A stretch of 31,302 nt of DNA. Origin: Thermodesulfobacteriota bacterium. GTDB lineage: Bacteria; Desulfobacterota_D; UBA1144; Nemesobacterales; N074bin48. The DNA lies in assembly GCA_041572575.1 (NCBI GenBank), contig JBFFSH010000027.1, positions 1-31,302 of the forward strand. Direction: 5' to 3'. The notes beneath the pieces are model-generated. The model saw only the letters and a list, made by a program, of their open reading frames with translations. It ran no database searches and had not been told where the DNA came from. This document shows, piece by piece, positions 198 to 31,166 of the stretch (its first letter is position 1; every line of letters starts with the position of its first letter). The translations under genes and the position numbers were made by a program.

Positions 198-854
198 TTA
201 TGATCTGTATTCAGGGTACGACCTGGTGAGCTTTTCTTTAAGCTCGTTTCTTGCTCTTAGGATTCGTGATTTAACTGCAGAAATAGAAATACCCAGAACT
301 TGTGCTGCTTCTTTATTAGTAAGTCCTTCTATATCTCTTAATTGATATGCCAATCTGTAAACTGGCTCCAGGCTGTTAATGGCTTTATCCAAAAATTCAG
401 TTTGCTCAGAGTTTATTGCTATATTTTCTGGGTTATTATCTGTGTCTATTCCCGCAAACTCATAATTGGGCAGGTCTTCATTGGAATAATTATTATCTGA
501 ACTTAGATGAGTGCGGGAGTAATTATTCATTTTTCTTAAAAGATTGAAGCTCTCATTTTTGGTAATTGTGTATATCCAGGTAGCTAATTTAGAGCTGCCC
601 CTGAAATCACCCAATTTTTCAATAAGCTTTATAAATACTAACTGTAAGACTTCTTCTGCTGATTGAGGTGATTTGGTGATTCTTAGGGACAGCCTGTAAA
701 TTTTATCTCCAAACCTGCTTACCAATTCGTTAAATGCAAGTTCATCTTTATTTTTTACGTAAAGGCCTGCAAGTTTCTCATCACTCATGTCTATGTATGT
801 TACATTGTACTTAGTATCAGGACGGTCTATTGATAAGCCCCCAAGTTCAAACAT
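198..854 (-). CDS. ECF-type RNA polymerase sigma-70 factor
   Basis: Region 2 (AFNELVSRFGDKIYRLS...FRGSSKLATWIYTITKN) and region 4 (LRDIEGLTNKEAAQVLGISISAVKSRILRAR). AAGGAG RBS upstream of ATG 854. Confidence 0.93.
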   Translation of the reverse strand: MFELGGLSIDRPDTKYNVTYIDMSDEKLAGLYVKNKDELAFNELVSRFGDKIYRLSLRITKSPQSAEEVLQLVFIKLIEKLGDFRGSSKLATWIYTITKNESFNLLRKMNNYSRTHLSSDNNYSNEDLPNYEFAGIDTDNNPENIAINSEQTEFLDKAINSLEPVYRLAYQLRDIEGLTNKEAAQVLGISISAVKSRILRARNELKEKLTRSYPEYRS

Positions 855-865
855 GTCTGTGCTCC

Positions 866-1240
866 TTATCTTTTTTTATGCTCTTTTTTAATTGTTAATA
901 CAAACTGACCTTTCATGTTTGGATGAAACCTGCAAAAGTAATTCGTTTGAGTGTCTGAGGTCACTGTTAATTTCCAGCTGTCATCCTTATTAAGAAGACC
1001 GGAGTCCCAGCTTTCATCATTTGCAGTGGCAGTGTGAGGGATAAAATCTTTATTTACCCACTCTACGGTATCGCCGGGCAATACTTGCAGCTCAGCTGGT
1101 ATAAACTCAAGATTTCTTATCTCGACTACATGCACCTTGCTTTGAGGCTCGTCAGCTAAGGCTGTCCAGGTTGTCGTTAAACTCAGGACCGCAGCAACAA
1201 AAGCTGCTGCAGCCCAAACTGTTAGATTTGATTTTTTCAT
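866..1240 (-). CDS. Exported cupredoxin (plastocyanin/amicyanin-like type-1 copper protein)
   Basis: Signal peptide; PGDTVEWVNKD..PHT and YFCRFHPNMKG supply the His/Cys/His/Met type-1 Cu ligands. Confidence 0.9.
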   Translation of the reverse strand: MKKSNLTVWAAAAFVAAVLSLTTTWTALADEPQSKVHVVEIRNLEFIPAELQVLPGDTVEWVNKDFIPHTATANDESWDSGLLNKDDSWKLTVTSDTQTNYFCRFHPNMKGQFVLTIKKEHKKR

Positions 1241-1243
1241 GAC

Positions 1244-1810
1244 TTATTTCCCGTTTAGAGAAGCAACCATCTTTTCTGCATGCTTTTCATGAGCCTTAAA
1301 TATTTGCAGAGCCTGTTCGAAAAGAGCCTTCACTTCCGCATTTTGGATATTAGGTATAAAAGTTCCTCCGACAAGACCATTTACGGCCTGATGATATCCA
1401 AGCTCATTTTCAGCGTAAAATTTATCAAAGTCGTTTCCTGATAATCCGCTCATTTTTTCTACAAGCCCGTCTGCCTGAGTATTTAGCTGCTGGCTTAGAA
1501 AGTTGTCTTGTGCCTCAGCACCTAGTTTTTCAAGAAGAGCAAGCGCCTGAGCGTTTACGGCTTCATGGTCTCTTATCATGGTTTTTGCAAACTCATGAAT
1601 TACAGGATTCTTAGACTTTGCGAGTGCTAAGTGTGCATATCTTATGTCAATTGAATCTGCTGTGTATGCTACATGCGCTATCTCAAGGTCATTTAAATCA
1701 GCCGGGGTCTTGTCTTTGGCTGACAGGTTTGCTGCTGCAAATACCATGAGTGCTACTGCTATAACAAAAATACCGGCTGCTGCCGAATTTAAATATCTTA
1801 TGTTGCTCAT
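1244..1810 (-). CDS. DUF4142-family exported ferritin-like helical protein
   Basis: Motifs FAKTMIRDH, FDKFYAENELGYHQ, HEKHA. Start moved to ATG 1810 because of a GGAGGT RBS and because the longer ORF start lies inside the sigma54 promoter. Signal peptide present. Confidence 0.82.
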   Translation of the reverse strand: MSNIRYLNSAAAGIFVIAVALMVFAAANLSAKDKTPADLNDLEIAHVAYTADSIDIRYAHLALAKSKNPVIHEFAKTMIRDHEAVNAQALALLEKLGAEAQDNFLSQQLNTQADGLVEKMSGLSGNDFDKFYAENELGYHQAVNGLVGGTFIPNIQNAEVKALFEQALQIFKAHEKHAEKMVASLNGK

Positions 1811-1848
1811 TATGGTGTTACCTCCAATAAATTTTATATACATATATG

Positions 1849-1863
1849 GCAACACCTGTGCCA
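1849..1863 (-). promoter_or_regulatory. Sigma54 (-24/-12) promoter for DUF4142-cupredoxin-ECF operon
   Basis: Minus strand TGGCAC-AGGTG-TTGC is a perfect TGGCAC-N5-TTGC match, and a sigma54 activator gene is adjacent. Confidence 0.85.
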
Positions 1864-1887
1864 AACTTAAGACAACTGAAAATAAGC

Positions 1888-1904
1888 TTGTAACTGTCTG
1901 AAAT
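1888..1904. promoter_or_regulatory. Putative IHF-like DNA-bending site
   Basis: TTGTAACTGTCTGAAAT, conserved as TTGTAACTGCCTGTAAT at 5164..5180 at nearly the same offset (25 vs 26 bp) from the -24 box. Loosely matches IHF YAA-N4-TTGATW. Confidence 0.5.
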
Positions 1905-1960
1905 GATTGAAATAATTATGATTTAAATGATATTAGATAAGATCATGTTAAAATCTGTTA

Positions 1961-1978
1961 ATTGCGAAATAACGCAAT
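1961..1978. promoter_or_regulatory. Putative upstream activator sequence (enhancer) for sigma54 activator
   Basis: Palindrome ATTGCG-N6-CGCAAT about 99 bp upstream of the -24 box. TTGC-N8-GCAA recurs 101 bp upstream of the second sigma54 promoter. Confidence 0.65.
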
Positions 1979-2016
1979 GTAATGGTATAGAGTAATTATT
2001 TTGTATGGAGGGTGAT

Positions 2017-3990
2017 TTACTGATCCTGTTGTATGGCTTTTTTCTTTATTCCGAGCTTGGCCATGCGTGTCCTGAGAGTGCTGGGGTTGATGTCCAAAAT
2101 CTTGGCAGCTCCGTTCTTTCCATGTACCTGCCAGTTTGTTTGACTTAGTACTTTGATGATGTGCTCTCTTTCTACGTCTTCAATCCTTGTTGACCCAATA
2201 CCCTCATCTGCTTGTAATTTCTGCGATGATACCAATAGTCTGTTATCAATTTCAAGAGTATCGCTTGTGCTGAGAATTACGGCTCTTTCTATGATATTTT
2301 CAAGCTCCCTGATATTTCCAGGCCAGTTGTAATCGGTTAATCTTTTAAGTGTATCATTACTGATAGAATTAATATTTTTTCCCATTTTTCTGCAATATTT
2401 ATCCAAGAAATAATAGCATAAGGGTGTTATATCTTCAGTTCTGTCTCTTAAAGATGGTATGTCTATAGGGAACACATTTAATCTGTAATAAAGATCTGCT
2501 CTGAATTTGCCTTCTTTAACTGCATCTTCCAGGTTCCTGTTTGTAGCCGCTATTACCCTTACGTCTACCGTAAAGGTCTCTGTGCCACCGACTCTTTCAA
2601 ACTCTCTTTCCTGTATGACTCTCAGGAGCTTTGCCTGAGCATCCAGGGGCAGGTCGCCAAGCTCATCTAAGAATATCGTACCTCCGTCTGCAAGCTCAAA
2701 TTTCCCTATTTTTTTAGTAATAGCACCGGTGAATGATCCCTTTTCGTGTCCGAATAGCTCACTCTCAATCAAGCCCGATGGAATAGCCGGACAGTTAACT
2801 TTAATGAGCGATCCGTTGTTTCTGCTGCTCAGGTTGTGTACAGCTCTGGAAATAAGCTCTTTGCCTGTTCCTGTTTCACCTCTTATAAGTACCGTAGCGT
2901 CTGTGTCTGCTACTTGTTTGATGTTGTTTTGAACTTCTTTTAACGGTTTACTGGTTCCTATAATCTCTTCAAAATTGTACTCTGTTTTTATTTCCTCTTT
3001 TAGGTATACATTTTCCTTTTCAAGTTTTTGCTTAAGTGATTTTATTTCCTCAAAAGCACCTTCAAGCTGGTCATGACTTCTTCTAAGTGAATCTTCAGCT
3101 TCAATTCTTTCTAGCTCCGATCCTGCTCTTAGAGCAAATACCTGTAGAATGTGAAAAAAGTTGGAAATATCTTTAAATATATCATCGTGAAATACTGCTA
3201 AATGACCAATAACTGAATTCTTTGAGTTATAAATGGGAATACCTAGATAGCTTTGAGCGTCATATTTCTTTAATTCTTCATCATCAGGATATAAACCAAT
3301 AATATTGTCATCGTAATAGCAAAATTTACCAGATATCACATTTTTACATGGAGTACCTTGCAGATCATACTCTATATCATCTCCATAATCATTTCTTTCC
3401 CAAAAAGCCAGTGTCCTAACTTTAGTCCTCTCGGTATTGAGACATTTAGAAATAAACACATAATTAACATTTAATATTTCTGATATGTTCTTAACAAGTG
3501 TACAGAAGAAATCTCTTCCTGTTACTGAACTAGTCTTTTTAATTAATAAATTTATCGATTGTTCTGTAACCTTCTTATCTGTAATATTTATCCATGAACC
3601 TCCTACCTCTCTAGGTTTGCCCTGATAGTCATATATAACCTCACCACGGTCATAAAACCACCGGTATTCGCCGTGTGCACATTTCCACCTGTATTCTACT
3701 TCGTATGAACTGTTCTCTACAACACTACTAACAGCTTTGACTACCATTTCTCTATCTTCAGGGTGAATTCTGCTTTTCCAAAACTTATTATCAAAACCAA
3801 ATTTCTCTACATCAAATCCGGTGAGGTTCTTTACCCCCTTGCTCATGAAAGTAAGTTCAAATTTACCTTTTGCGCTTGTGGTATAAAATGCAATTGGAAG
3901 AGTGTTTAATACCAAGGACTGCTTGGTACTGCTGATATTTGATAAAGATTTCTTATTGTCAGATATGCTTTTTTTATTACTCATTAACAT
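2017..3990 (-). CDS. Sigma54-dependent enhancer-binding protein (PAS-GAF-AAA+-Fis HTH, FhlA-like)
   Basis: PAS (IHPEDRE...EYRWK...YRWFYDRG), GAF (SYLGIPIY...VIGHLAV), Walker A GETGTGKE, ESELFGHEKGSFTGA, FLDELG, WPGNIRELEN and C-terminal HTH. Confidence 0.95.
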   Translation of the reverse strand: MLMSNKKSISDNKKSLSNISSTKQSLVLNTLPIAFYTTSAKGKFELTFMSKGVKNLTGFDVEKFGFDNKFWKSRIHPEDREMVVKAVSSVVENSSYEVEYRWKCAHGEYRWFYDRGEVIYDYQGKPREVGGSWINITDKKVTEQSINLLIKKTSSVTGRDFFCTLVKNISEILNVNYVFISKCLNTERTKVRTLAFWERNDYGDDIEYDLQGTPCKNVISGKFCYYDDNIIGLYPDDEELKKYDAQSYLGIPIYNSKNSVIGHLAVFHDDIFKDISNFFHILQVFALRAGSELERIEAEDSLRRSHDQLEGAFEEIKSLKQKLEKENVYLKEEIKTEYNFEEIIGTSKPLKEVQNNIKQVADTDATVLIRGETGTGKELISRAVHNLSSRNNGSLIKVNCPAIPSGLIESELFGHEKGSFTGAITKKIGKFELADGGTIFLDELGDLPLDAQAKLLRVIQEREFERVGGTETFTVDVRVIAATNRNLEDAVKEGKFRADLYYRLNVFPIDIPSLRDRTEDITPLCYYFLDKYCRKMGKNINSISNDTLKRLTDYNWPGNIRELENIIERAVILSTSDTLEIDNRLLVSSQKLQADEGIGSTRIEDVEREHIIKVLSQTNWQVHGKNGAAKILDINPSTLRTRMAKLGIKKKAIQQDQ

Positions 3991-4045
3991 AATATTAAAG
4001 CATAAATCAGTTTTTTTTGCTACCCCTATATAATTAGTAAATAAT

Positions 4046-4074
4046 AAAAAGCGGGTACAGTAGTTTGTACCCGC
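4046..4074 (-). terminator. Rho-independent terminator after YHS gene
   Basis: Minus strand GCGGGTACA-aactac-TGTACCCGC (9-bp stem) followed by TTTTT. Confidence 0.8.
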
Positions 4075-4146
4075 ACACCTTATTTTTGATATTTCAATAA
4101 GATTAAAGTTTCATTTAAGTATAGATTTACTTAGTAAGAAGAAGAT

Positions 4147-4605
4147 CTATAACTCACTTGGTGATTTATCTTTTATATTCGGCCAGTGATTATTTGCTTT
4201 TTTGATGTTGCCCGGAATATCTTTAATCCACATAGTCTTAATCCCATTGTCGAGATTCATATACAGCTTTCCATCGACTACTTCCCAAACCTCAGGGTCG
4301 GCTGAGAACTTTTTACCAACAGAAACTCCAAAGGCGCACCAGCCTCCATATGCGGGAAGGTATTTGTCAGGGTTTTTTGTAAATGTGTTTTTGTTCTCTT
4401 CACTTGTAAAAAGATATGTAACACCGTTATGTGTTGCAACGTAGTTTCCGTTACCCCTAAGAGGCCTCTTGTCGGTCTGGTAAGTGACAAGGTCATATCC
4501 ATTTACACCTACTGTGTTTACTGTGGTATCACCCGCAAACACTGATTGTATTCCAAATACACTGAATATCATTAACGAAAAAAATAATGTTTTTGTTCTG
4601 TTCAT
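4147..4605 (-). CDS. Exported YHS-domain protein (YHS (seleno)protein-like family, Cys form)
   Basis: Signal peptide; GYDLVTY, YLFTSEENKNTFTKNPDKYLPAYGGWCAFG, DPEVWEVVDGKLYMN. Confidence 0.88.
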   Translation of the reverse strand: MNRTKTLFFSLMIFSVFGIQSVFAGDTTVNTVGVNGYDLVTYQTDKRPLRGNGNYVATHNGVTYLFTSEENKNTFTKNPDKYLPAYGGWCAFGVSVGKKFSADPEVWEVVDGKLYMNLDNGIKTMWIKDIPGNIKKANNHWPNIKDKSPSEL

Positions 4606-4620
4606 TTCATGTCTCCTGTA

Positions 4621-5076
4621 CTAAACGTATTTAATTACATATTTATCTGATAAAGCATCTACTTTCTCTGCTGCTGGCTGGCCGTCTTTATAAAGATCTG
4701 CAAGCTCTACAAAGTAGTTGTCAAAGTTGCCTGGCAAAATCGTAACACTTATTCTGCTGTCGGTTTCTCCAACATTTGTAAAGCCATGAGGGATACCTCT
4801 TGGAAGAAGCGCCATTACTCCCGGTACAGCTTTCATTTTCTGGTCGCCCAGTGTGACTTCTATTTCACCTTCTAGTACTGAGACGAATTCATCTTCTTTT
4901 TCATGTACATGAAGGTCCACTCCGCTTCCGGGCGGGGTAACTAACTCCATCACCGAAAACACTCCGTTTGTATCCTTACTGTTAACTTTATGAATGAAGC
5001 TTCCGCCTCCTATCATAAATTCATGTCCACCACCTGGTGGAACAATGATTGGGTCCTGCGTATATGTTGTTGACAT
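4621..5076 (-). CDS. Cupin-domain protein (quercetin dioxygenase-like cupin_2)
   Basis: LHVHEKEDE...VLEGE...PRGIPHGF metal-binding cupin motifs. Start set at ATG 5076 (GGAGGT RBS); the longer ORF overlaps the promoter. Confidence 0.88.
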   Translation of the reverse strand: MSTTYTQDPIIVPPGGGHEFMIGGGSFIHKVNSKDTNGVFSVMELVTPPGSGVDLHVHEKEDEFVSVLEGEIEVTLGDQKMKAVPGVMALLPRGIPHGFTNVGETDSRISVTILPGNFDNYFVELADLYKDGQPAAEKVDALSDKYVIKYV

Positions 5077-5123
5077 CTGTCTTAACCTCCTGGTTAATAA
5101 AATTTTATTTGTATCTATATATT

Positions 5124-5138
5124 CCAAGACGCGTGCCA
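5124..5138 (-). promoter_or_regulatory. Sigma54 (-24/-12) promoter for cupin-YHS operon
   Basis: Minus strand TGGCAC-GCGTC-TTGG (one mismatch at -12), preceded by AAGTT exactly as at the 1849..1863 promoter. Confidence 0.75.
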
Positions 5139-5238
5139 AACTTGGGAGGTTAATGTTGTGTCGTTGTAACTGCCTGTAATTACGTGATAATATAGTCTGC
5201 GTGTTATGGTCTAAAGCGAAAAAGTCAACCAAATGTTA

Positions 5239-5266
5239 TTGCGGAATCCAGCAAGTTTGCTGGATT
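5239..5266. promoter_or_regulatory. Putative activator binding sites (TTGC-N8-GCAA plus overlapping inverted repeat)
   Basis: TTGC-GGAATCCA-GCAA at 5239..5254, and perfect inverted repeat AATCCAGCAA-gt-TTGCTGGATT at 5245..5266. Confidence 0.6.
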
Positions 5267-5371
5267 TAATGAAATAGACTTTTAGTAACTTAGTAGTAGT
5301 TTTAGTATGATTTTATATGGCAGGCCTGTATCTGAACTCATTATGACAATAAGAAGATTCTTATATTCATT

Positions 5372-5397
5372 CATCCAAACCTCTATTTAACTCCGTA
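5372..5397 (+). promoter_or_regulatory. Possible ECF-type promoter (CATCC-N17-CGTA)
   Basis: CATCC at 5372 and CGTA at 5394, 30 bp before ATG 5428. Resembles SigK-like ECF promoter motifs as I recall them; single instance. Confidence 0.3.
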
Positions 5398-5427
5398 TAT
5401 ATCTAAAAATTTATAAGGAGGTGCAAG

Positions 5428-6087
5428 ATGAGAAGAAACATCTTGTTCTTATTTTCATTATTTATATTTGTAGTATCAGTATCGGGTGCAGGCCAGGTTT
5501 ATGCAGGTGGTAAACATGTAATGGTATCCCCAACATCTGCTACAAAGGCTGCCGATGTGAGGGTTGCATTAAATTCTCTTTTAAGAGAACACGTGTTCTT
5601 GGCAACAGCGGCTACAGGTGCAGCGCTTGGAGGAAGGTCCGATGAATTTCAGTCTGCTGCCACAGCTCTTGATGGAAATTCTGTTGATATAGCAAATGCT
5701 ATCGGATCCATTTATGGTGAAGATGCTGGTGAGGCATTTCTTCCACTTTGGAGAAAGCATATAGGATTTTTTGTTGATTACACAACCGGGGTTGCTACAA
5801 AGGATGAAGCCAAGCAGCAAAAGGCCGTAAGTGATCTTCTTGGATATACAAAAGACTTTGCAGCTTTTCTAAACTCTGCAAGTCCTGCTCTGCCGGTAGA
5901 TACAGTTGCTGAGTTATCAAAGACTCATGTTATTACGCTAAAGGCAGTAGTGGATACGCAGGCTACAGGAAACAGTGAAGAGGCTTATAAGGCAATAAGA
6001 AAAGCATCAGCACATATGCAGATGATAGCCGACCCACTTGCTGAAACCATAGTACAGCAGTTTCCTAATACATACGCTGTAAAATAA
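5428..6087 (+). CDS. Exported His-containing helical-bundle protein (family often loosely annotated 'copper amine oxidase-like'), function unknown
   Basis: AAGGAGG RBS and signal peptide; motifs LREHV, NSVDIANAIGSIYG..AGEAFLPLWRKHIGFFVDY, SKTHV, SAHMQM. Confidence 0.7.
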   Translation: MRRNILFLFSLFIFVVSVSGAGQVYAGGKHVMVSPTSATKAADVRVALNSLLREHVFLATAATGAALGGRSDEFQSAATALDGNSVDIANAIGSIYGEDAGEAFLPLWRKHIGFFVDYTTGVATKDEAKQQKAVSDLLGYTKDFAAFLNSASPALPVDTVAELSKTHVITLKAVVDTQATGNSEEAYKAIRKASAHMQMIADPLAETIVQQFPNTYAVK

Positions 6088-6112
6088 TATTTATTCATAT
6101 TTAAAATATATT

Positions 6113-6144
6113 CTGGGGCAGGCCGCAACACCGGTCTGCTCCAG
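6113..6144 (+). other. GC-rich intergenic RNA hairpin
   Basis: CTGGGGCAGGCCG-caacac-CGGTCTGCTCCAG, a 13-bp stem with two G-U pairs on the + strand and no U-tract. Confidence 0.6.
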
Positions 6145-6161
6145 CACTTACATGGAGAATT

Positions 6162-6563
6162 ATGATTATGAAACTATTAAAAATGATAATGATCTTTACT
6201 ATTATGAATGTGTTTTATATATCAGCAGCTACATATTTTATGAGTTTTGCCGATAGTATCGAGGCTGAAACCGTTTTGGAAAAAAGTAATGGGGATCAGG
6301 TCGAAGTAGATATCAAGCTATTTCAGTACAAACCCGCAGACATAGAAGTTAGCACCGGTACTACAGTAATCTGGAAAAACAATGATGCCATTGAACACAG
6401 CATAACACATGGAACCCCGGAAAATTCAGGAGATGAATTTGATTCAGAATTTTTCACAAAAGAACAAAGCTATTCGATGAAGTTTGAAAAAGAAGGTGAA
6501 TATCCTTACTTTTGCAAAAGACATCCATCTATGAAGGGTAAGGTTGTAGTTACTTCCAGATAA
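6162..6563 (+). CDS. Exported cupredoxin (plastocyanin/azurin family)
   Basis: GTTVIWKNND..EHSI and GEYPYFCKRHPSMKGKVVV type-1 Cu ligand set; GGAG RBS. Confidence 0.9.
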   Translation: MIMKLLKMIMIFTIMNVFYISAATYFMSFADSIEAETVLEKSNGDQVEVDIKLFQYKPADIEVSTGTTVIWKNNDAIEHSITHGTPENSGDEFDSEFFTKEQSYSMKFEKEGEYPYFCKRHPSMKGKVVVTSR

Positions 6564-6633: not shown

Positions 6634-6719
6634 TGGCGGAGGGCGAGGGATTCGAACCCCCAAGTCCGCAAGGACGCCGGTTTTCAAGACCGGTGCATTA
6701 GCCGTTCTGCCAGCCCTCC
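6634..6719 (-). tRNA. tRNA-Ser (anticodon TGA)
   Basis: GGAGGGC/GCCCTCC acceptor stem + GCCA, anticodon arm CCGGT-CTTGAAA-ACCGG, long variable arm (GTCC-TTGC-GGAC) and GGTTCGAATCC T-loop. Confidence 0.97.
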
Positions 6720-10892: not shown

Positions 10893-12344
10893 TTATCCCT
10901 TTATAACACCTATTGGTCTTAGTCTGGCTACTTTTTTTGCAATCCCTGCATTATGAACAACGTCGCATACATCTTCAACTTTTTTATAAGCATCGGGCAT
11001 TTCTTCAACAATTGTTCTTTTTTTTCTGGCTATGACTTCAATTCCTTTTTTACTGAGCTCTGCAAGCAGCTTATTCGGATCGCCCTGCTTAAGCGCTCTT
11101 CTTCTCGACAGAAGCCTTCCTGCTCCATGGCAGCAGGTTCCAAATGTTTGCTCAAGTGCGTTTTCAGTTCCTACTAAAACATATGATGCTCTACCCATAT
11201 CACCCGGTATCATGACAGGCTGTCCAACGTCCTTGTAAATATCAGGGATAAGCGGATGATTTTTTGGAAACGACCTTGTAGCCCCCTTTCTGTGTACACA
11301 TACTTTTTTCATTTCACCATTAATTTTATGTTCTTCTATTTTTGCTATGTTGTGGCTTACGTCATAGACTAGTGCAGCACCCAGATCTGCAGAGCTTAGA
11401 TTAAGCACATTCATAAAAGCCTCTCTTGTAAGGTGCATAATTATCTGCCTGTTTATCCATGCATAATTCACTGCGGCTGCAAAGGCAGAGAGATACTCCT
11501 TTCCTTCTTTGGAATTAATGTGTGCGCAGGCAAGCTGTTTGTCGGGAAGTTTTATTTGCTCTCTTTCCATATATCTCAGCATTTTATTAATATAATCGGA
11601 GCATATCTGATGCCCAAACCCCCTTGAGCCGCAGTGTATCAGCACGCAGACCTGCCCGATGGACAGGCCAAAAGCATCAGCAACCTTTAAATTGTCTATC
11701 TTGTCCACTACATTAATCTCCAAAAAGTGGTTTCCTGAACCAAGCGAGCCTAACTGATTCCTTCCTCTTTCAAGTGCTTTTTGGCTTATATTTTCTAGGT
11801 TTGATCCCGAAAAATAGCCCCTGTCTTCAATCATCTCCAGGTCTTGTTCTATTCCCCATCCTCTTTCTATCGCCCATTTCACTCCTTTATCCGTAAAATC
11901 GTTGTAATCACTATCGGATAATTTTATTTTACCCCCAATACCCGGGCCGCAGGGTACGGTTTTGAATAGTTGCTCTACAAGAAGTCTAAGGCTTGGCCTC
12001 ACGTCTTTCTCTGTAAGATTGGTTCTCATTAAACGCACGCCGCAGTTGATGTCATATCCTACCCCTCCGGGTGAGATCACTCCAGTTTCAATATCTGTTG
12101 CGGCAACTCCTCCTATTGGAAATCCGTAACCCAGATGAATGTCGGGCATGGCTATGGAATATTTTTGTATACCGGGGAGGTGGGCAACATTTACGACCTG
12201 CTCGATTGATCTGTCTTCAATAATAGACTTAAGTATTTTCTCGTTTACATAAAGCCTTCCGGGGACAAGCATCCTGCCTGTTTTTGGAATTTCAAAAAGA
12301 TAATCATTTATCTTTATTGTTTTTATAGGTCGTGAATGTTCCAT
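10893..12344 (-). CDS. rtcB: RtcB RNA ligase (long, archaeal-type)
   Basis: [54 protein letters not shown]. Start uncertain (12344 or 12359). Confidence 0.96.
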
Positions 12345-12348
12345 AAAT

Positions 12349-12768
12349 TTATATGTCAAATGTGATCGTTGCCGATAATAATCCGTTATTATGCTCTACA
12401 TTTAGGCCACTATATGTTACGGCTTTTATATCGTTTAATAGATCATGCCTCGAAAAATCGATCTCTTCACCTTTGCAGATACCCTCAACCTCTTTATTTT
12501 CATTTACTTTAATTTCAAAATCAGAGAACAACAGTCTTTTAACTTCATGCATGTATAGCAGTTCTGAAAGCCAGTTTACAAGGAGTTGTTCTTCTGAGTT
12601 TCCATCTGATTTAACCGCATATTTATTTTTTGCTTCAATAGTATTCAAATCGCAAATTATATCCATCATTGCTAAAGAACTATTAATTAATAATTCGTTA
12701 AAGTCCCTACCGGATACTCTAACGGATATATCGGCTGTGTGGTCAATTATTTCATAGCTTTTATTCAT
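12349..12768 (-). CDS. Archease (RtcB activator)
   Basis: YEIIDHTAD, IKAVTY and C-terminal FDI; likely start ATG 12768. Confidence 0.94.
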   Translation of the reverse strand: MNKSYEIIDHTADISVRVSGRDFNELLINSSLAMMDIICDLNTIEAKNKYAVKSDGNSEEQLLVNWLSELLYMHEVKRLLFSDFEIKVNENKEVEGICKGEEIDFSRHDLLNDIKAVTYSGLNVEHNNGLLSATITFDI

Positions 12769-12860
12769 AACTTTATAAGAAAAAAATAAATTAATTATTC
12801 TGTCTTGCAAAGTTTTATCATATTTGTTAATTTTACGAAATTTTATTCTGGAGGAAAGAA

Positions 12861-13580
12861 ATGGCAAATATCGGTAAAGGCTTTGAGATTACATATTACG
12901 GACATTCAACATTCAGGATCAAATCACCCAAAGGAAAAATTATTTTCATTGATCCCTGGATAACAGAAAACCCCTCATGCCCTGAAAACCTTAAAGATGT
13001 TGATGGAGTAGATATTATTGCAGTTACCCACGGCCATTTTGATCATATAAGTGATGTTAGACCACTTGCAGAGAAATATAAACCTACTGTTGTTTCAAAC
13101 TGGGAGATTTGTGACTGGCTTGGAAGTAAGAAAGTTGAAAACTGTGCGCCAATGAATAAAGGGGGAGGGCAGGTAGTAGACGGAATAAAGTTTTTCATGA
13201 CCCATGCTCAGCATTCAAGCGGCATTAAAGACGATGACGGTTCAACTATATATGGTGGAGAGCCTGCTGGCTTTGTTATTCAACTTGAAAATGGCTTCAG
13301 GCTTTATCATGCTGGAGACACTAATATATTTAGTGATATGAAATTAATTTCCGAGATATATAAACCTGAGCTTGTTATGCTTCCTATTGGAGACTTGTTT
13401 ACCATGTCACCGCTTGAGGCTTCTTATGCATGCAGGTTTTTAAATCCAAAATATGTGATACCGATGCATTATGGTACATTCCCGCCGCTTATCGGCACAC
13501 CTGATCAGCTAAAGGCTCTTACAAGAGACCTTACAGAGATGGAGATAATTGCACTTAAACCAGGTGAGGTTTTGAGCTAG
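12861..13580 (+). CDS. Metallo-beta-lactamase-fold hydrolase (UPF0173-like)
   Basis: YYGHS, IDPW, THGHFDH, HAQHSS, YHAGDT, PMHYGTF; GGAGG RBS. Confidence 0.92.
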   Translation: MANIGKGFEITYYGHSTFRIKSPKGKIIFIDPWITENPSCPENLKDVDGVDIIAVTHGHFDHISDVRPLAEKYKPTVVSNWEICDWLGSKKVENCAPMNKGGGQVVDGIKFFMTHAQHSSGIKDDDGSTIYGGEPAGFVIQLENGFRLYHAGDTNIFSDMKLISEIYKPELVMLPIGDLFTMSPLEASYACRFLNPKYVIPMHYGTFPPLIGTPDQLKALTRDLTEMEIIALKPGEVLS

Positions 13581-24835: not shown

Positions 24836-25225
24836 ATGAAAAAGGTTCTATCATTTTTTCTTGCTCTAAATATATTCCTTTGTTATGGCGGGCTGTGTGA
24901 TCTGTGTCATGCGTTAGGCCCTGAGCCGGATACTGCGGCTGACTGTCATTCCATGGGCGCAATGCAGATGGAGCAATCAACCATAGATACATCTTTGGAT
25001 TTTCAGATATCATCTATAGAAGAAAATATATCTCTTTGCCAGTATTTTCTTTTAAGTAAATCTTTTGAGATTGAAGACAATTTGTATGATGGTGAAATAT
25101 TTACAGAGTTATTTATTTCACAGACTAATAATTACAATTATATTTTCGAGAAATCTAGTTTTAAGATACCTGACAGAGCAATACCCACCGAGCTTTTTAT
25201 AAAAAACTCTTCTTATTTAATCTAG
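24836..25225 (+). CDS. Small exported Cys/His/Met protein, putative metal-sensing leader (DUF2946/CutF-like role)
   Basis: Signal-like N-terminus, CYGGLCDLCH, DCHSMGAMQM, and C-terminal PDRAIPTELFIKNSSYLI; first ORF of the metal RND operon. Confidence 0.6.
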   Translation: MKKVLSFFLALNIFLCYGGLCDLCHALGPEPDTAADCHSMGAMQMEQSTIDTSLDFQISSIEENISLCQYFLLSKSFEIEDNLYDGEIFTELFISQTNNYNYIFEKSSFKIPDRAIPTELFIKNSSYLI

Positions 25226-25227
25226 AA

Positions 25228-25321
25228 ATATTTCTCTCCGTTATTTTTTCCCGTTTACAGGGAAGTTTTATCCACTTGGGTTCATTTAGGAACTCTAATT
25301 CTTAACCGTGGAGGGAAATAT
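25228..25321 (+). promoter_or_regulatory. Anti-Shine-Dalgarno stem sequestering cusC RBS/start
   Basis: AUAUUUCUCUCCG (25228..25240) pairs over 13 contiguous bp (two G-U) with UGGAGGGAAAUAU (25309..25321). Confidence 0.65.
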
Positions 25322-26603
25322 GTATTTTTATCTTATTTTAACACTGTTTTTATTTATAAATTCTGCCGTGCTTGAGGCAAAGGAGAGTTTTAGTCTCGAT
25401 AGCGCAATCAGACAGGCTTTGGACAATAATCCTGAAATAAAGGCTGCACAAGCAATGTCTTTAGCTTCTGCTAAGAGACCTACTCAGGTGTCTTCACTTC
25501 CAAATCCAACAATTGGACTCAGGTTTAAAAATGTAAGTTTCTCAGAGATTACGCTTGGTGAAGATCCAAGAACTGATATTCAGGCATATTTTATTCAGGA
25601 TATACCATTTCCAACCAAACTCTCTTCCAAAAGAAAAATTGCCGAGCAGGTATCAGAGGCCCAAAAATGGAAAGCAGAGTCTGTTACAAGAAGAGTTATA
25701 GCAGAGCTCAAAAAAGAGTACTACAACTGGTATCTGATTAGTAAATCACTCGAAATTACAAAACGAAATAAGGAACTTCTGGAGCAATTTGTAAAAACAG
25801 CAGAGATAAAATACGAAGTCGGAAAGGGTATACAGCAGGACGTTATTAAAGCACAAGTGGAACTCTCTTCGTTCATTCATACAGTAGAACACCTGAGTAT
25901 GAAAAAAGAGATCACCGAGGCAAGAATAAAGAAGATATTAAATCTCTCCCAGCATTCTGATATCGGTAGTCCTGAAAAAATAGAGAAAACGGATATTGAC
26001 ATCACACTGGAAAATCTAAGCGAAATGACCAAGAATCAGTCCCCACAATTACTTTCAGAACTCGAGCTTGTTGAGGGTTCAAAAGAACAGCTGCAGCTTG
26101 CAAAAAAGCAGTATCTTCCGGATTTTGTGATTCAGGGCACTTATTTTAACAGAGACGGAGGAACTGATAATTTCGAAGACCTCTGGCAGGTGGGGCTTGG
26201 CCTGAAAGTGCCGCTTTATTTCTGGAGAAAAGAAAAGCCTGCAATACAAGAGGCTCATTTAAACCTTCAGGCTAGTAAGGATAGATATGATGATAGTACG
26301 TCAGAGATTTTGTTTGAGATCAAGGATAAATATATTTCTGCTAGTACTGCAGACAGGCTCATGGGCTTGTATAAAGATGGAATCATACCTCAGTCACAGA
26401 TTTCCCTTGAGTCTGCAATTTCCGGCTATCAGGTGGGTGATGTGGATTTTCTTACACTACTTAATAATCTCATAACCCTATTTAATTTTGAGATTGAGTA
26501 CTACAAACAGCTTGCCGAGCATGAGATATCTGTAGCAATGCTTGAGCAGATATCGGGAGTAGATTTTAATAAAACAGAGTCTGGTAATCAGGGGAGAAAT
26601 TGA
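25320..26603 (+). CDS. TolC/CusC-family outer-membrane efflux protein
   Basis: Signal peptide, ALDNNPEI, LPNP, YLPDF, SGYQVGDVDFLTLL. Start ATG 25320 after GGAGGG RBS. Confidence 0.92.
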   Translation: MYFYLILTLFLFINSAVLEAKESFSLDSAIRQALDNNPEIKAAQAMSLASAKRPTQVSSLPNPTIGLRFKNVSFSEITLGEDPRTDIQAYFIQDIPFPTKLSSKRKIAEQVSEAQKWKAESVTRRVIAELKKEYYNWYLISKSLEITKRNKELLEQFVKTAEIKYEVGKGIQQDVIKAQVELSSFIHTVEHLSMKKEITEARIKKILNLSQHSDIGSPEKIEKTDIDITLENLSEMTKNQSPQLLSELELVEGSKEQLQLAKKQYLPDFVIQGTYFNRDGGTDNFEDLWQVGLGLKVPLYFWRKEKPAIQEAHLNLQASKDRYDDSTSEILFEIKDKYISASTADRLMGLYKDGIIPQSQISLESAISGYQVGDVDFLTLLNNLITLFNFEIEYYKQLAEHEISVAMLEQISGVDFNKTESGNQGRN

Positions 26604-26604
26604 G

Positions 26605-28035
26605 ATGAAATTTAAAAACAATAAAGCCGTAGTAGGGTTAATCTTAATTATTATTACAGGATTAGCCTTGTTTGGATCAAAAATACCTGTTGTAAATAAA
26701 ATCCCATTATTTACACAAAAACACGAGCATGAATATATGCCGGTAATGGATGAGGATGGGGCTATAGAGTACTGGACATGCGCCATGCATCCGTCTGTGA
26801 GGCTTGATGAACCGGGTCAGTGCCCTATATGCGGGATGGATCTAACATCTGTTGAAAAACCAATAAAACATAAGAGCAGCGATATGGATAACGCATCATC
26901 ACAGAATATGCATGACCATAGTGGTCATGGCACAGGTGTGATGCCCAAAAAACAAGAAGATGGACAAGTAAGTTCAGAGTTTATAGTAAGCCCACAAAGG
27001 CAGCAGATGATTGGTGTTAAGACAGAGATAGTCTCTATTCGGTCTATGAACAGGACGATTCGAACAGTTGGTAAGGTTGAGCTTGATGAAACTAAAATAG
27101 AACACATACACACAAAAGTAAGCGGTTGGATCGATAAAGTGTTTGTAGACTTTACATGGAAGCATGTAATGAAGGGCGACCCACTATTTTCTATATACAG
27201 CCCCGATCTTGTATCCACACAACAGGAGTACCTGCTTGCACTCAAATCAGAGAATGTTCTTGGAAAAAGCGAGTTTTCCGAGATTTCAGGCGGCGCAAAG
27301 TCGCTGGCTGAGGCTACAAGAAGAAGGCTTAAACTCTGGGATATCTCAGAATCACAGATAAGAGAACTGGAAAGAACAGGAAAGGTAAAAAAGAGCCTTG
27401 TTATTTACTCTCCCATAACAGGTCATGTTTCGTTTAAAAATGCATTTGAGAATATGTATGTTGAGCCTAAGACAACAATTTTTACAATTGCCGATCACTC
27501 TACTGCATGGGTAAATGCTGATATATATGAGGATGAAATATCTCTGGTTAAACCGGGTCAGCATGCTTCTATTACAGTTACGGCACTCCCGGGTGAGGCG
27601 TTCCATGGACAGATCACATTCGTATGGCCGCATCTTATGAAAAAAACCAGAACTTCCAAGGCAAGGCTGGAGTTTCCAAACCCTGATCTGAAGCTCCTGC
27701 CAGAGATGTTTGCTGATGTAACTATTGAAATACCCAGTGAAGATAAACTCTCAGTACCTACAAGCGCAGTACTGAGAACTGGCAAGCAGAATATAGTGTT
27801 TGTTGATAAAGGTGAAGGGGCGCTGCAAATAAGAAAGGTCAAACTTGGACAGAAATCTGAGCTGTACTATGAAGTGCTTAAAGGTTTAAAAGAAGGTGAC
27901 AGGGTGGTAACAAGCGCAAACTTCCTGATTGATTCGGAAAGCAAGGTGAGGGCTGCTGTGGCTACGTGGGGAGATGATGATCAGTCAGAAACTACCGAAG
28001 ATATAAAATCAGATAACCATGAGAGTATGAAATGA
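26605..28035 (+). CDS. cusB: CusB-like RND membrane-fusion protein with N-terminal heavy-metal-binding domain
   Basis: WTCAMHP...PGQCPICGMDL, His-rich MHDHSGHG, GWIDKV, YSPDLVSTQQEYL, NFLIDSES. Confidence 0.9.
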   Translation: MKFKNNKAVVGLILIIITGLALFGSKIPVVNKIPLFTQKHEHEYMPVMDEDGAIEYWTCAMHPSVRLDEPGQCPICGMDLTSVEKPIKHKSSDMDNASSQNMHDHSGHGTGVMPKKQEDGQVSSEFIVSPQRQQMIGVKTEIVSIRSMNRTIRTVGKVELDETKIEHIHTKVSGWIDKVFVDFTWKHVMKGDPLFSIYSPDLVSTQQEYLLALKSENVLGKSEFSEISGGAKSLAEATRRRLKLWDISESQIRELERTGKVKKSLVIYSPITGHVSFKNAFENMYVEPKTTIFTIADHSTAWVNADIYEDEISLVKPGQHASITVTALPGEAFHGQITFVWPHLMKKTRTSKARLEFPNPDLKLLPEMFADVTIEIPSEDKLSVPTSAVLRTGKQNIVFVDKGEGALQIRKVKLGQKSELYYEVLKGLKEGDRVVTSANFLIDSESKVRAAVATWGDDDQSETTEDIKSDNHESMK

Positions 28036-31000
28036 TAGAAAAGATAATAGAGTATTCCGCAAAAAATAAATTTATAACAATCCTGGGAGTCCTTTTTATC
28101 TCGGCATGGGGATTTTGGGCCATGAGCAACACTCCTCTCGACGCAATACCCGATCTTTCCGATGCTCAGGTAATAGTATTTACAGAGTGGAAAGGCAGGA
28201 GTCCTGACCTTGTAGAGGATCAGATTTCTTATCCTATTGTTACAACAATGATTGCTGCGCCAAATGTTAAATTTGTAAGAGGCCAGTCATTCTTCGGACT
28301 TTCTTTTGTCTATATAATTTTTGAAGACGGTACGGACATTTACTGGGCAAGAAGCAGGGTGTTAGAGTATCTGAACCAGGTCTCGGGAAAGCTTCCTGAA
28401 GGAGTTAATCCCACACTGGGTCCGGATGCTACGGGTGTGGGATGGGTTTATCAGTATGCGCTTGTGGATGAAAGCGGAAATAACGATCTGTCTGATTTAC
28501 GCACTTTTCAGGACTGGTATCTGCGCTACTGGCTTGAATCTGTCCCGGGTGTAGCAGAGGTAGCAAGCGTGGGAGGATTTGAAAAACAGTATCAGGTAGA
28601 GATTGATCCCAATAAGCTTGTAGCTTACGATATACCGCTTAATAAAATAATTTCTGCTATTAGAAGGAGCAATAATGATGTGGGGGGAAGAGTAGTAGAA
28701 TTTGCCTCGACAGAATATTTTGTAAGAGGCAGGGGGTATATCAAATCCACTTCGGATATAGAAAAAATACCGGTAGGAGTAGGAAAAGACGGTACTCCGA
28801 TTTATATAAGAGATATTGCAGATGTTCATATGGGCCCTGAAATCAGAAGAGGGCTTGCCGAATTAAACGGTAAAGGTGAGGCGGTAGGCGGTATAGTAGT
28901 AATGCGCTACGGAGAAAATGCCTTAGAAGTGATAAGTAACATTAAGGCAAAAATACAAGAGATACAGCCATCTTTACCCAAAGGAGTTAAAATTGTAACC
29001 ACATACGACCGCTCCGGTCTAATAAACCGCGCAATTGATACACTAAAGGGGAAATTAATAGAAGAAATCATCATTGTAAGCATAGTAATTATTATATTTC
29101 TATTTCATCTAAGAAGCGCAGCAGTTCCCATTCTAACTATCCCCTTTGCAGTACTAATGGCATTTATACCGATGTTTTACCTTAAGAATACATCAAACAT
29201 CATGTCCCTCGGCGGTATAGCCATAGCAATTGGCGCCATGGTTGATGCGTCTATTGTTCTTGTGGAAAATGTACATAAGAGGCTAGAGGGTAAGATTCTT
29301 GGTGATAATCAACAAAAGAGAACCGAAATAATTATAGATGCCATGAAAGAGGTAGGAAAGCCCATATTTTTTGCTCTTCTCATAATAACGATATCATTTC
29401 TGCCAATATTTACTTTGGAAGCACAGGAAGGAAGGCTATTCAGGCCACTTGCATATACAAAGACATTCTCTATGTTTTTTGCATCCCTTCTTGCTATTAC
29501 TCTTACCCCAGCGCTTATTGTTTTGTTTATTAAAGGTGAGATTAAATCTGAAGAAAACAATCCGATTAACAGGTTTTTAATAAAAATGTATGATCCTGTT
29601 GTAAGATTTGCTCTAAAATTCAAAACTGCTGTAATAGTTGTCTCTGTCCTGATATTAATAGTCACTTATCTTCCCTACAAAAAACTTGGCGAAGAATTTA
29701 TGCCGCCTCTTAATGAAGGCAGCATCCTTTATATGCCAACAGCCGTACCGGGGATGTCAATAACAGAAGCATCAAAAATTCTTCATATTCAGGATAAAAT
29801 GCTCATGAAATTTCCTGAGGTACAGACAGTATTCGGGAAAATCGGAAGGGCCAAGACAGCTACTGACCCAGCTCCGCTCAGTATGGTTGAAACAGTTATC
29901 ACTTTAAAGCCGGAGAAAGAGTGGAGGGCTGGAATGACCTGGGACAAGCTTATATCTGAGATGAATACGACAATGAAATTTCCGGGAATGGCAAATATTT
30001 TCTGGATGCCCATTCAAACAAGAACCGAGATGCTATCAACTGGTTTTAGAAGTAATCTTGGTATTAAAGTATTCGGTCCGGATCTGAATATTATTGAAAA
30101 TATCGGAATTGAGATTGAAAAAATTCTTACCGAAGTTCCTGGTACAAGAAGTGTTTTTGCTGACAGGGTTACAGGCGGATATTTTATGGATTTCAATATA
30201 AGCCGGGAGAGAGCAGCCAGGTATGGTCTCACGGTGGGTGATGTCGAAGATGTAATAGAAAGTGCTATTGGAGGTAAGAATATATCACACACTGTAGAAG
30301 GTCAGGAAAGATATCCTATCAATGTCAGATATCAAAGGGGGTTCAGGAACGATCTTGAGGCGCTTGGCAGTGTGCTTGTATCAAGCCCAACAGGAGTAAA
30401 TGTTCCTCTTTCATTATTAACGGATATAAAATTTACAACCGGCGCACCACAGATAAGAAACGAGGACGGGCAGAAAGTTGGCTTTGTAAATGTCGATGTC
30501 TCAGACGGCGACTATGCCGGATTTGTTGATAAAGCACAAAAAACTATTAATGAAAAAATTTCACTTCCTAAAGGCTATAAGCTCGAGTGGGCCGGTCAGT
30601 ATGAATATTTGCAAAGGGTTAAAGAAAAATTAAGTTATGTGGTTCCTGTTACGATTCTAATAATTTTCATTCTGCTATTTCTCAATTTTAACTCGTTAAT
30701 TGAGTCATTGATTGTACTCCTGTCGGTACCGTTTTCTCTGGTAGGAAGCATATGGTTTCTAAGTATCCTCGGATACAATTTAAGTATAGCTGTCTGGGTA
30801 GGAATAATAGCCCTTGCAGGTCTTGCCGCTCAGACAGGAGTAGTGATGATCATATATTTGGATGAGTTTTATGATAAAATGGTTGCCGAAGGAAAGGTTA
30901 GCCTGAAAAATCTCGAGCAGGCCATACACGATGGTGCGGTGCAAAGAGTTAGGCCAAAGATGATGACGGTGATGGCTCTTATTATGGGTCTATTACCACT

Positions 31001-31166
31001 TATGTGGAGTCATGGCACGGGAGCTGATGTTATGAAAAGAATTGCAGCACCTATGGTAGGCGGGCTTGTTACATCAACTATTCTTACTCTTGTAATAATC
31101 CCTGTAATATATGCAATTTGGAGGGGCAGGGAATTAGATAAACATATAGAGAAAACTAAATTATAA
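28032..31166 (+). CDS. cusA: CusA/SilA-type Cu(I)/Ag(I) RND efflux transporter
   Basis: PLDAIPDLSD, LGPDATGVGWVYQY, GAMVDA, EFMPPLNEG..LYMP, DPAPLSMVET, RVRPKMMT, MKRIAAPMVGG. Confidence 0.96.
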   Translation: MIEKIIEYSAKNKFITILGVLFISAWGFWAMSNTPLDAIPDLSDAQVIVFTEWKGRSPDLVEDQISYPIVTTMIAAPNVKFVRGQSFFGLSFVYIIFEDGTDIYWARSRVLEYLNQVSGKLPEGVNPTLGPDATGVGWVYQYALVDESGNNDLSDLRTFQDWYLRYWLESVPGVAEVASVGGFEKQYQVEIDPNKLVAYDIPLNKIISAIRRSNNDVGGRVVEFASTEYFVRGRGYIKSTSDIEKIPVGVGKDGTPIYIRDIADVHMGPEIRRGLAELNGKGEAVGGIVVMRYGENALEVISNIKAKIQEIQPSLPKGVKIVTTYDRSGLINRAIDTLKGKLIEEIIIVSIVIIIFLFHLRSAAVPILTIPFAVLMAFIPMFYLKNTSNIMSLGGIAIAIGAMVDASIVLVENVHKRLEGKILGDNQQKRTEIIIDAMKEVGKPIFFALLIITISFLPIFTLEAQEGRLFRPLAYTKTFSMFFASLLAITLTPALIVLFIKGEIKSEENNPINRFLIKMYDPVVRFALKFKTAVIVVSVLILIVTYLPYKKLGEEFMPPLNEGSILYMPTAVPGMSITEASKILHIQDKMLMKFPEVQTVFGKIGRAKTATDPAPLSMVETVITLKPEKEWRAGMTWDKLISEMNTTMKFPGMANIFWMPIQTRTEMLSTGFRSNLGIKVFGPDLNIIENIGIEIEKILTEVPGTRSVFADRVTGGYFMDFNISRERAARYGLTVGDVEDVIESAIGGKNISHTVEGQERYPINVRYQRGFRNDLEALGSVLVSSPTGVNVPLSLLTDIKFTTGAPQIRNEDGQKVGFVNVDVSDGDYAGFVDKAQKTINEKISLPKGYKLEWAGQYEYLQRVKEKLSYVVPVTILIIFILLFLNFNSLIESLIVLLSVPFSLVGSIWFLSILGYNLSIAVWVGIIALAGLAAQTGVVMIIYLDEFYDKMVAEGKVSLKNLEQAIHDGAVQRVRPKMMTVMALIMGLLPLMWSHGTGADVMKRIAAPMVGGLVTSTILTLVIIPVIYAIWRGRELDKHIEKTKL

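Follow-up and report, generated by a model that had tools for sequence, protein, structure and literature searches.

Genes and transcription units of the module

The window analyzed here is the entire contig JBFFSH010000027.1 (C27), a stretch of 31,302 nucleotides from a Thermodesulfobacteriota bacterium. The source genome is 2.6 Mb long, has a G+C content of 37%, and is 96% complete; the sequencing runs containing the window DNA are of marine origin. The window carries a module of two operons and a predicted sigma-54 activator encoded between them. The order on the minus strand is promoter P2, the cupin and YHS genes, a hairpin, the activator gene, promoter P1, and the genes for a DUF4142 protein, a cupredoxin, and an extracytoplasmic function (ECF) sigma factor (Table 1). 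The identities of the six genes proposed in an initial annotation were confirmed with Pfam and NCBIfam models, including the cysteine form of the YHS protein. The GGAGGT ribosome-binding site reported to be common to both operons is present in front of the start codons ATG 1810 (DUF4142) and ATG 5076 (cupin). The hairpin between the YHS and activator genes, overlooked in the initial annotation, closes the cupin-YHS operon as a predicted terminator. No terminator was found between the activator stop codon and P1, and read-through into the P1 operon is therefore possible. The window contains no anti-sigma gene adjoining the ECF sigma gene.

Table 1 Features of the sigma-54 module (positions in the window; HTH, helix-turn-helix; IHF, integration host factor)
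Feature	Position	Strand	Description
ECF sigma factor (gene 3 in the DUF4142 operon)	198..854	-	TIGR02937 above cut-off; 12-bp gap to cupredoxin gene
Cupredoxin, signal-peptide-like N-terminus	866..1240	-	Type-1 copper ligands H69, C103, H106, M109
DUF4142 protein, likely exported	1244..1810	-	PF13628, 109.5 bits vs gathering score 27
GGAGGT ribosome-binding site of DUF4142 gene	1820..1825	-	
P1 -24/-12 box, TGGCAC-N5-TTGC	1849..1863	-	Same box in orthologs L133, L134
IHF-type box of P1, 17 bp	1888..1904	.	25 bp from -24/-12 box
P1 proximal enhancer site (predicted)	1962..1977	.	18.5-19.5 bits, joint best single site in genome
P1 distal enhancer site (predicted)	1980..1995	.	18 bp from proximal site; 2.7 bits; conserved in L133, L134
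Sigma-54 activator, PAS_3-GAF-AAA+-Fis-type HTH (HTH_8)	2017..3990	-	Assigned from Pfam domains and fold
Intrinsic-terminator-like hairpin	4051..4074	-	9 pairs, 6 G-C, T-run
YHS-domain (seleno)protein family, Cys form, signal-peptide-like N-terminus	4147..4605	-	NF041384, 138 bits vs cut-off 70; TGC codon
Cytoplasmic mono-cupin (Cupin_2)	4621..5076	-	His/His/Glu/His metal motif
GGAGGT ribosome-binding site of cupin gene	5085..5090	-	
P2 -24/-12 box, TGGCAC-N5-TTGG (variant -12)	5124..5138	-	TTGG retained in L133, L135, L136
IHF-type box of P2, 17 bp	5164..5180	.	26 bp from -24/-12 box
P2 proximal enhancer site (predicted)	5239..5254	.	4.7-7.4 bits alone
P2 distal enhancer site (predicted)	5257..5272	.	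Forms inverted repeat 5245-5266 with proximal site

Sigma-54 promoters and the IHF-type box

The upstream regions of the DUF4142 and cupin operons had been described as aligning element by element, and each element lies where it was placed. No -24/-12 boxes other than those of P1 and P2 are present in the 31-kb window, and AAGTTTGGCAC occurs just twice in the genome, at these two promoters. The assignment of P1 and P2 as sigma-54 promoters is supported by the boxes, the conserved upstream enhancer, and the rpoN gene found in the genome. In other cupin orthologs, the -12 element of P2 is TTGC or TTGT. A scan for sigma-70 promoters gave 22 sites against 21.2 expected, which is no signal. Four sequencing runs labeled as RNA cover the contig at flat depth, with genes equal to intergenic DNA, and were not used for start sites, strand, or expression level.

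Each promoter is preceded by a 17-bp box. Compared with the IHF consensus, the P1 box fits seven of the nine defined positions and the P2 box six. The 14-bp core of the box has 36 copies in the genome at no more than one mismatch. Five of them stand upstream of a -24/-12 box at a distance of up to 60 bp, the background rate being 0.2%: the two of the window and three others, on contigs C5, C13, and C38. On C54, the 17-bp box also neighbors a tRNA gene. It is likely a general architectural site for an IHF-type protein. Its presence in both operons, as initially annotated, is borne out, but it is not specific to the regulon: as a regulon signature it was rejected, since copies also precede other sigma-54 promoters.

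Predicted paired enhancer sites

The palindrome TTGC-N8-GCAA, annotated initially as the enhancer, lies 99 and 101 bp from the -24 boxes of P1 and P2, at 1962-1977 and 5239-5254. These are its only two copies in the window; the genome has 45, which corresponds to about 1.6e-4 per 9-bp slot. A more general motif was derived from comparison loci that were retrieved with DUF4142 genes and with related activators of the order as anchors. The training set consisted of 26 sigma-54-type upstream regions, from which the window and its closest orthologous loci, L133-L136, were excluded. The de novo motif is a 16-bp near-palindrome with the consensus TCACGATATTTCGTAA and a log-likelihood of 149, compared with 47-57 for five shuffled sets, run with 40 seeds instead of the 120 of the real run. 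In relatives, the motif occurs as pairs of sites 18-19 bp apart, located 96-101 bp upstream.

Alignments of close orthologs have the two sites and the 17-bp box as conserved blocks, separated by diverged spacers. L133 and L136 both preserve the inverted repeat 5245-5266 at P2, the changes within it being matched. In L133-L136 the GCAA half is often ACAA; because of this variation, TTGC-N8-GCAA is only the version of the proximal site found in the window genome, and it was rejected as a motif of the family. Thus the location of the annotated enhancer and its position at about 100 bp are conserved in relatives, but the element is a pair of 16-bp sites, the distal one of which is missing from the initial annotation, and the GCAA half is not invariant.

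The pair score evaluates two sites located 94-102 bp from a -24 box. P1 and P2, with 21.2 and 10.7 bits, rank first and second among 36 candidate promoters of their own genome (next -0.6). The list of 36 is without the C5 and C12 promoters, in which the -12 element is TTGT and which were scored separately. P1 and P2 also rank first and second among 446 relaxed boxes. Shuffled versions of their own upstream DNA reached the observed pair score in none of 5000 cases for P1 and in two of 5000 for P2. Among the 446 relaxed boxes, no further convincing target with a pair at 94-102 bp was found in the genome. The third-ranking box, C13:24187 (10.2 bits), apparently lies within a reading frame; C30:28173 coincides in part with a repeat found at contig ends. 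Both were rejected as additional targets.

In a free scan of the 107 distinct boxes in the fetched loci, the position was allowed to vary over 70-140 bp and the site spacing over 16-22 bp. Thirty-three boxes scored at least 18 bits, 32 of them with a spacing of 18-19 bp. The pairs are at 96-101 bp in 27 boxes, at 87-88 or 108-111 bp in five, and at 81 bp in one, and five of the six off-position boxes are displaced by approximately one helical turn. Thirteen of the 33 boxes were not in the training set, and ten of these are at 97-101 bp. Among cupin orthologs, 7/11 have a box with a pair at 99-101 bp, four of them held out from training. The motif and its spacing are thus conserved in related genomes. 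No literature on the motif core was found in a search that covered few subscription papers.

Activator and its paralogs

The activator is of the one-component type, with an N-terminal sensor, a C-terminal HTH, and no receiver domain. Its AAA+ domain matches PF00158 with 243.6 bits and has Walker A and B motifs at residues 371 and 440. The loop is GSFTGA, which is listed as an activity-keeping variant of GAFTGA (PMC4641369). PF02954 (HTH) and PF08447 (PAS_3) score above their cut-offs; the GAF domain is just below the Pfam cut-off and is confirmed by its fold. The GAF model has a predicted local distance difference test (pLDDT) score of 92.6 and matches the GAF domain of PtsP (Z 20.3), free methionine sulfoxide reductase (17.1), and bilin-binding GAF domains (17.0). 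A sequence search among solved structures gave no real relative of this domain. In GAF homologs, C215 and H263 are present in 42/42 and C183 in 38/42. The PAS domain carries one cysteine, C104.

The genome has 18 matches to sigma-54 activator domains, 12 of them full. The recognition helices of the activators on C27, C4, C5, and C12 are near-identical, and each of the other three activators has its own adjacent promoter. That of the C5 paralog precedes a STAS-ECF unit (31.1 bits, gap 88, spacing 19 bp) and outscores both window promoters. That of the C4 paralog precedes an isochorismatase-family gene (9.6 bits, gap 86, spacing 19 bp). The C12 paralog adjoins an OsmC-like gene whose promoter has four single sites of 8.7-12.1 bits and no well-spaced pair. 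The claim that the regulon is self-contained is therefore doubtful, since the three paralogs share both helices and motif, but in its favor each has a promoter of its own. Because the enhancer is a family-wide motif, cross-activation by paralogs is likely possible. Local control by the adjacent activator is the likelier default, because one-component activators in Desulfovibrio are mostly local, with 10/13 adjoining their own promoters (PMC4641369), and because the window sites have flanks and spacing of their own.

At the C5 locus (C5:15058-17789, L108), the activator has a GAFTTA loop and its gene is flanked by a ferritin-like gene and the STAS-ECF unit. The promoter of this unit has TTGT as its -12 element and carries the genome's best enhancer pair. 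At C12:20282-22983 (L148), an activator with the same Cys/His type of GAF domain precedes the OsmC-like gene, and the -12 element is again TTGT. A unit of an activator, a sigma-54 promoter, a small STAS-like protein, and an ECF sigma factor recurs across the order (L102, L103, L105, L114, L117, L122-L132). The STAS protein of these units stands beside an ECF sigma factor with no evident anti-sigma factor.

Probable co-regulation and distribution of the module

The co-regulation of the DUF4142 and cupin operons, proposed in the initial annotation, is well supported by the motif at both promoters and by the gene order in relatives. In L013, L015, and L107, the cupin, YHS, DUF4142, and cupredoxin genes form a single same-strand run behind one such promoter. 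The strongest argument that P1 and P2 are used together is that genes split between two promoters in the window share one promoter in these relatives. In L017 the module genes are arranged in two runs, together with an activator and an ECF sigma gene. L133 and L134 retain the gene order of the window as far as their contigs extend, and activator-cupin-YHS synteny is retained in L013, L113, L118, L133, and L134. Comparison of neighborhoods, which the initial annotation had suggested, thus finds module genes recurring with such promoters.

The distribution of the module within the order is patchy. Close DUF4142 homologs are present in 7/101 genomes and cupin homologs in 10/101, the source genome included in both counts. 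Public loci with the same gene set and an activator bear the titles Candidatus Dadabacteria, Thermodesulfobacteriota, or Deltaproteobacteria. The literature search described above found no paper joining DUF4142 with a cupredoxin or an ECF sigma factor, and none on Dadabacteria with sigma-54; DUF4142 as such is mentioned in 12 papers. A DUF4142 context was not seen in the examined part of the supplement to the ECF classification (PMC7826278).

Target proteins

Signal-peptide-like N-termini were assigned by a crude hydropathy check to the DUF4142, cupredoxin, and YHS proteins, and not to the cupin and ECF sigma factor. The DUF4142 protein is predicted to be a ferritin-like four-helix bundle (pLDDT 83.6). 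The model is closest to DUF305 and copper-bound CopM (Z 17.1 and 16.7, root-mean-square deviation 2.1-2.4), with Dps, symerythrin, and other ferritin-like folds within 1-2 Z units. Foldseek template modeling (TM) scores are 0.70-0.83 at E values of at least 3.5e-3. Twenty His, Asp, Glu, Tyr, or Met positions are retained in at least 77/80 homologs.

A cupredoxin gene follows the DUF4142 gene in 77 of 80 loci, and all four type-1 copper ligands are present in 77/77 cupredoxin homologs. A predicted complex of the two proteins scores 0.59, compared with 0.00 for the best control, with 100% agreement between runs and partner pLDDT of at least 91. The score mark was reached by 116/157 solved and 2/215 mismatched pairs, and scores up to 0.60 within this group comprise only 18 solved pairs and both mismatches. 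The prediction weakly supports the idea that the DUF4142 protein and cupredoxin form a complex. Judging by its invariant tyrosines and carboxylates and by the constancy of the cupredoxin neighbor, the DUF4142 protein may hold a redox site rather than serve plain storage.

An AraC regulator, almost always divergent, is encoded within 2.5 kb of the DUF4142 pair in 48/80 loci. Sigma-54 activator matches occur in only 4/80, one of which is a PAS fragment. Since they are so few, the widespread DUF4142-cupredoxin pair appears to have been placed under sigma-54 control in the lineage of the window. The pair, adjacent in 77/80 loci of many marine bacteria, would thus stand under stress regulators of two unrelated kinds. 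These results give the first functional lead that we have found for the pair, in which a metal protein, predicted to be exported, likely has an electron carrier bound to it. Cytochrome P460 genes often adjoin it (L015, L017, L052). The closest solved relative of the cupin is the quercetin 2,3-dioxygenase YxaG (E 3e-19).

Proposed mechanism and alternative explanations

It is likely, judging from the sequences, that the PAS-GAF activator switches both operons on together, probably upon oxidant or reactive small-molecule stress. We infer binding, looping, the acting paralog, the signal, and the target biochemistry as follows. Two activator dimers would bind the two 16-bp sites 18 bp apart, the proximal one 98-100 bp from the -24 box, and the box about 27 bp upstream would be the place where an IHF-type protein bends the DNA. 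A signal at the GAF or PAS domain would release the AAA+ ring and lead to promoter opening. The output would comprise the cytoplasmic cupin and the exported Cys-YHS protein from one operon, and the exported DUF4142 metal-binding bundle, with the type-1 cupredoxin as its likely partner, from the other. The ECF sigma factor, with no anti-sigma factor next to it, would relay the signal onward.

Given this mechanism, the chances are roughly even that the signal is oxidant or reactive-electrophile stress. Genes behind site-pair promoters are most often STAS-ECF units, followed by cupins, DUF4142, ECF genes, a hydrolase, and MsrA; in relatives, cytochrome P460 proteins and a protein resembling RclC (below the cut-off) are among those encoded nearby. 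An oxidant is favored because of the MsrA and OsmC-like targets, the P460 and RclC-like neighbors, the GAF domain that conserves Cys and His, and, in other bacteria, the AraC regulator with RclR as its best match beside the DUF4142 pair. Because module copies adjoin activators with different sensors, the gene set is not tied to one signal.

Several observations weigh against joint activation by an oxidant. At P2, the -12 element is off consensus and the pair is weak at 10.7 bits, beside the 10.2 bits of the apparently intragenic box on C13. The distal site scores about 3 bits at both promoters, and 4/11 cupin orthologs have no -24/-12 box within 170 bp. The training promoters come from related genomes, so that their counts are not independent events. 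Of four IHF- or HU-like genes in the genome, none scores above the ihfA cut-off (TIGR00987). No ligand can be named from the GAF model, which fits many types of GAF domain about equally well, and the sensors beside module copies are PAS only (L013), none (L015), or a GAF domain without the GTPC motif (L118). The best NCBIfam match of the AraC regulator near DUF4142 pairs is RclR, at 123 bits versus a cut-off of 400.

The main rival on the signal is copper handling. The same promoters and activator would then serve copper or another metal, with the DUF4142 protein as a CopM-like periplasmic buffer, cupredoxin as the carrier, and the GAF domain as a metal sensor. The nearest folds, DUF305 and copper-bound CopM, the invariant His and Met of the DUF4142 protein, and a second pair of a helical protein and a cupredoxin adjoining at 5428-6563 speak for metal handling. 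However, Dps, symerythrin, and other ferritin-like folds score nearly as well, the other motif targets are MsrA, OsmC-like, hydrolase, and STAS-ECF units rather than metal exporters, and the heavy-metal efflux genes at 25308-31166 are without a strict -24/-12 box. We therefore regard metal handling as quite unlikely. The same holds for the possibility that the promoters are driven mainly by, or shared with, the C5, C4, and C12 paralogs, which would make the module a node of a genome-wide network. The near-identical recognition helices would allow this, as would the same motif at the promoters next to the paralogs (31.1 bits, 9.6 bits, and four single sites) and the position of the C5 activator with its GAFTTA loop beside the best site pair of the genome. 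Nevertheless, every activator has its own adjacent promoter, and the window sites, with TTGC flanks, 18-bp spacing, and a gap of 98-100, differ from those at C5 and C4, with 19-bp spacing and a gap of 86-88. The activator-cupin-YHS synteny in five loci and the mostly local action of one-component activators (PMC4641369) point the same way.

Finally, P1 alone could be functional, and the likeness of the cupin side a decayed duplicate. This is suggested by TTGG as the -12 element of P2, its weak proximal site (4.7 bits), and its lower pair score. It is highly improbable, since the divergence seen in the spacer DNA spares TTGG and the inverted-repeat pair, orthologous cupin promoters bear strong pairs at the same distance, and only 2/5000 shuffles reach the P2 score. 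Joint activation of both operons by the PAS-GAF activator thus remains our preferred explanation. A farther-reaching speculation, on the whole unlikely, is an undescribed Dadabacteria oxidant-defense network, in which an expanded family of sigma-54 activators, with one DNA code of helically phased 16-bp pairs and swapped sensors, would let several signals feed shared promoters and ECF cascades. The DUF4142 bundle with its own cupredoxin electron carrier would then be a new exported enzyme, under RclR-like control in other marine bacteria, against reactive halogen or oxygen species.

Comparison with known systems

The window encodes a one-component system of a sigma-54 enhancer-binding protein, its binding to DNA being predicted. 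Paired sites and IHF looping are a general rule for sigma-54 activators (PMC7175178). The system works like OrpR and PexR, yet it belongs to neither family. OrpR of Desulfovibrio vulgaris is likewise a one-component activator of the PAS type whose gene separates two co-regulated sigma-54 operons, which form a small local regulon controlled together with IHF via palindromes and with redox input (PMC8359166). However, the OrpR operons diverge, whereas both operons of the window run in the direction of the activator. The PAS domain of OrpR binds a 4Fe-4S cluster via three cysteines, whereas that of the window has C104 only and the conserved Cys and His are in the GAF domain. The palindrome and targets also differ. 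The initial annotation knew of no described system of this composition; the gene set was indeed not found in the literature, but the layout of an activator between operons is known from OrpR.

PexR of Myxococcus xanthus is a GAF-AAA+-HTH activator for oxidant defense that uses tandem interrupted palindromes upstream of sigma-54 promoters (PMC12754779). It shares with the window system the combination of a GAF activator and tandem palindromic sites, but its sites are CACCG-n6-CGGTG, it acts on ahpC and katB, and it lacks a PAS domain; the motif and genes of the window differ. The NorR model covers only residues 314-595 of the activator, with 362 bits versus a cut-off of 476, and a different Cys/Cys/His set is conserved in the window GAF domain. 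The best family match of the AAA+-HTH half is the FhlA/HyfR-like NF011958 (401 bits, residues 312-653). An identity with FhlA was rejected, as the cut-off is 830 bits, the sensor half is unmatched, and the window has no formate hydrogenlyase genes.

The DUF4142 protein resembles CopM and DUF305 in its four-helix bundle, His/Met-rich invariant positions, and likely export. It differs from them in sequence, with approximately 14-16% identity, and in its invariant carboxylates and tyrosines and constant cupredoxin neighbor. In sigma-54-to-ECF cascades such as HrpL/ECF32, as predicted for the window, an ECF sigma gene is transcribed under sigma-54 control and not from its own promoter (PMC7826278), but the gene context differs from that of the window.

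The regulatory design itself is ordinary; the enhancer motif and the gene set were not found in the searched literature. The activator family is large and unstudied and belongs to a marine lineage that is abundant and mostly uncultured; the motif, with its spacing and phasing rules, provides a predicted binding site for the family and should make its regulons mappable from sequence.

Neighboring loci

A divergent pair of genes at 5428-6563 encodes a 219-residue helical protein, for which neither Pfam nor an atlas search gave a family, and a second cupredoxin. The pair and its promoter recur in relatives. No sigma-54 box was found at the divergent 5428 gene. Instead, an ECF-type promoter, TCATCC-N17-CGTATA, is present at 5371-5399. 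It has four copies in the genome, three of them on C70, and a similar element is located upstream in 8/16 homologous loci of the pair, the window included. The element resembles RpoE-ChrR promoters (PMC5507510). The pair is likely a separate oxidative-stress regulon next door to the module. That the ECF sigma factor of the window drives this promoter is unsupported, as three of the four copies are at the ECF/ChrR-like locus of C70. That locus (C70:3553-7938, L149) contains an ECF sigma gene with a ChrR-like anti-sigma factor in two open reading frames, a second ECF sigma gene, a DUF4331 gene, and the three promoter copies.

A tRNA-Ser gene at 6634-6719 directly follows the module, whose G+C fraction is 0.377 compared with 0.381 in the rest of the contig. 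Judging by their translations, the genes at 10893-12867 are presumably an rtcB-like RNA ligase gene and an archease-like neighbor. Those at 24836-31166 we take, again from their translations, to be heavy-metal efflux-like genes for an outer-membrane factor, a periplasmic adaptor, and a resistance-nodulation-division pump. The contig ends, 1-117 and 31163-31279, carry the same sequence of 113-117 bp in inverted orientation. Contig ends account for all 24 copies of this sequence, and another type of end, with a near-identical 18-bp terminus, is present 20 times. They likely mark the termini of a multi-copy insertion sequence that has been collapsed.

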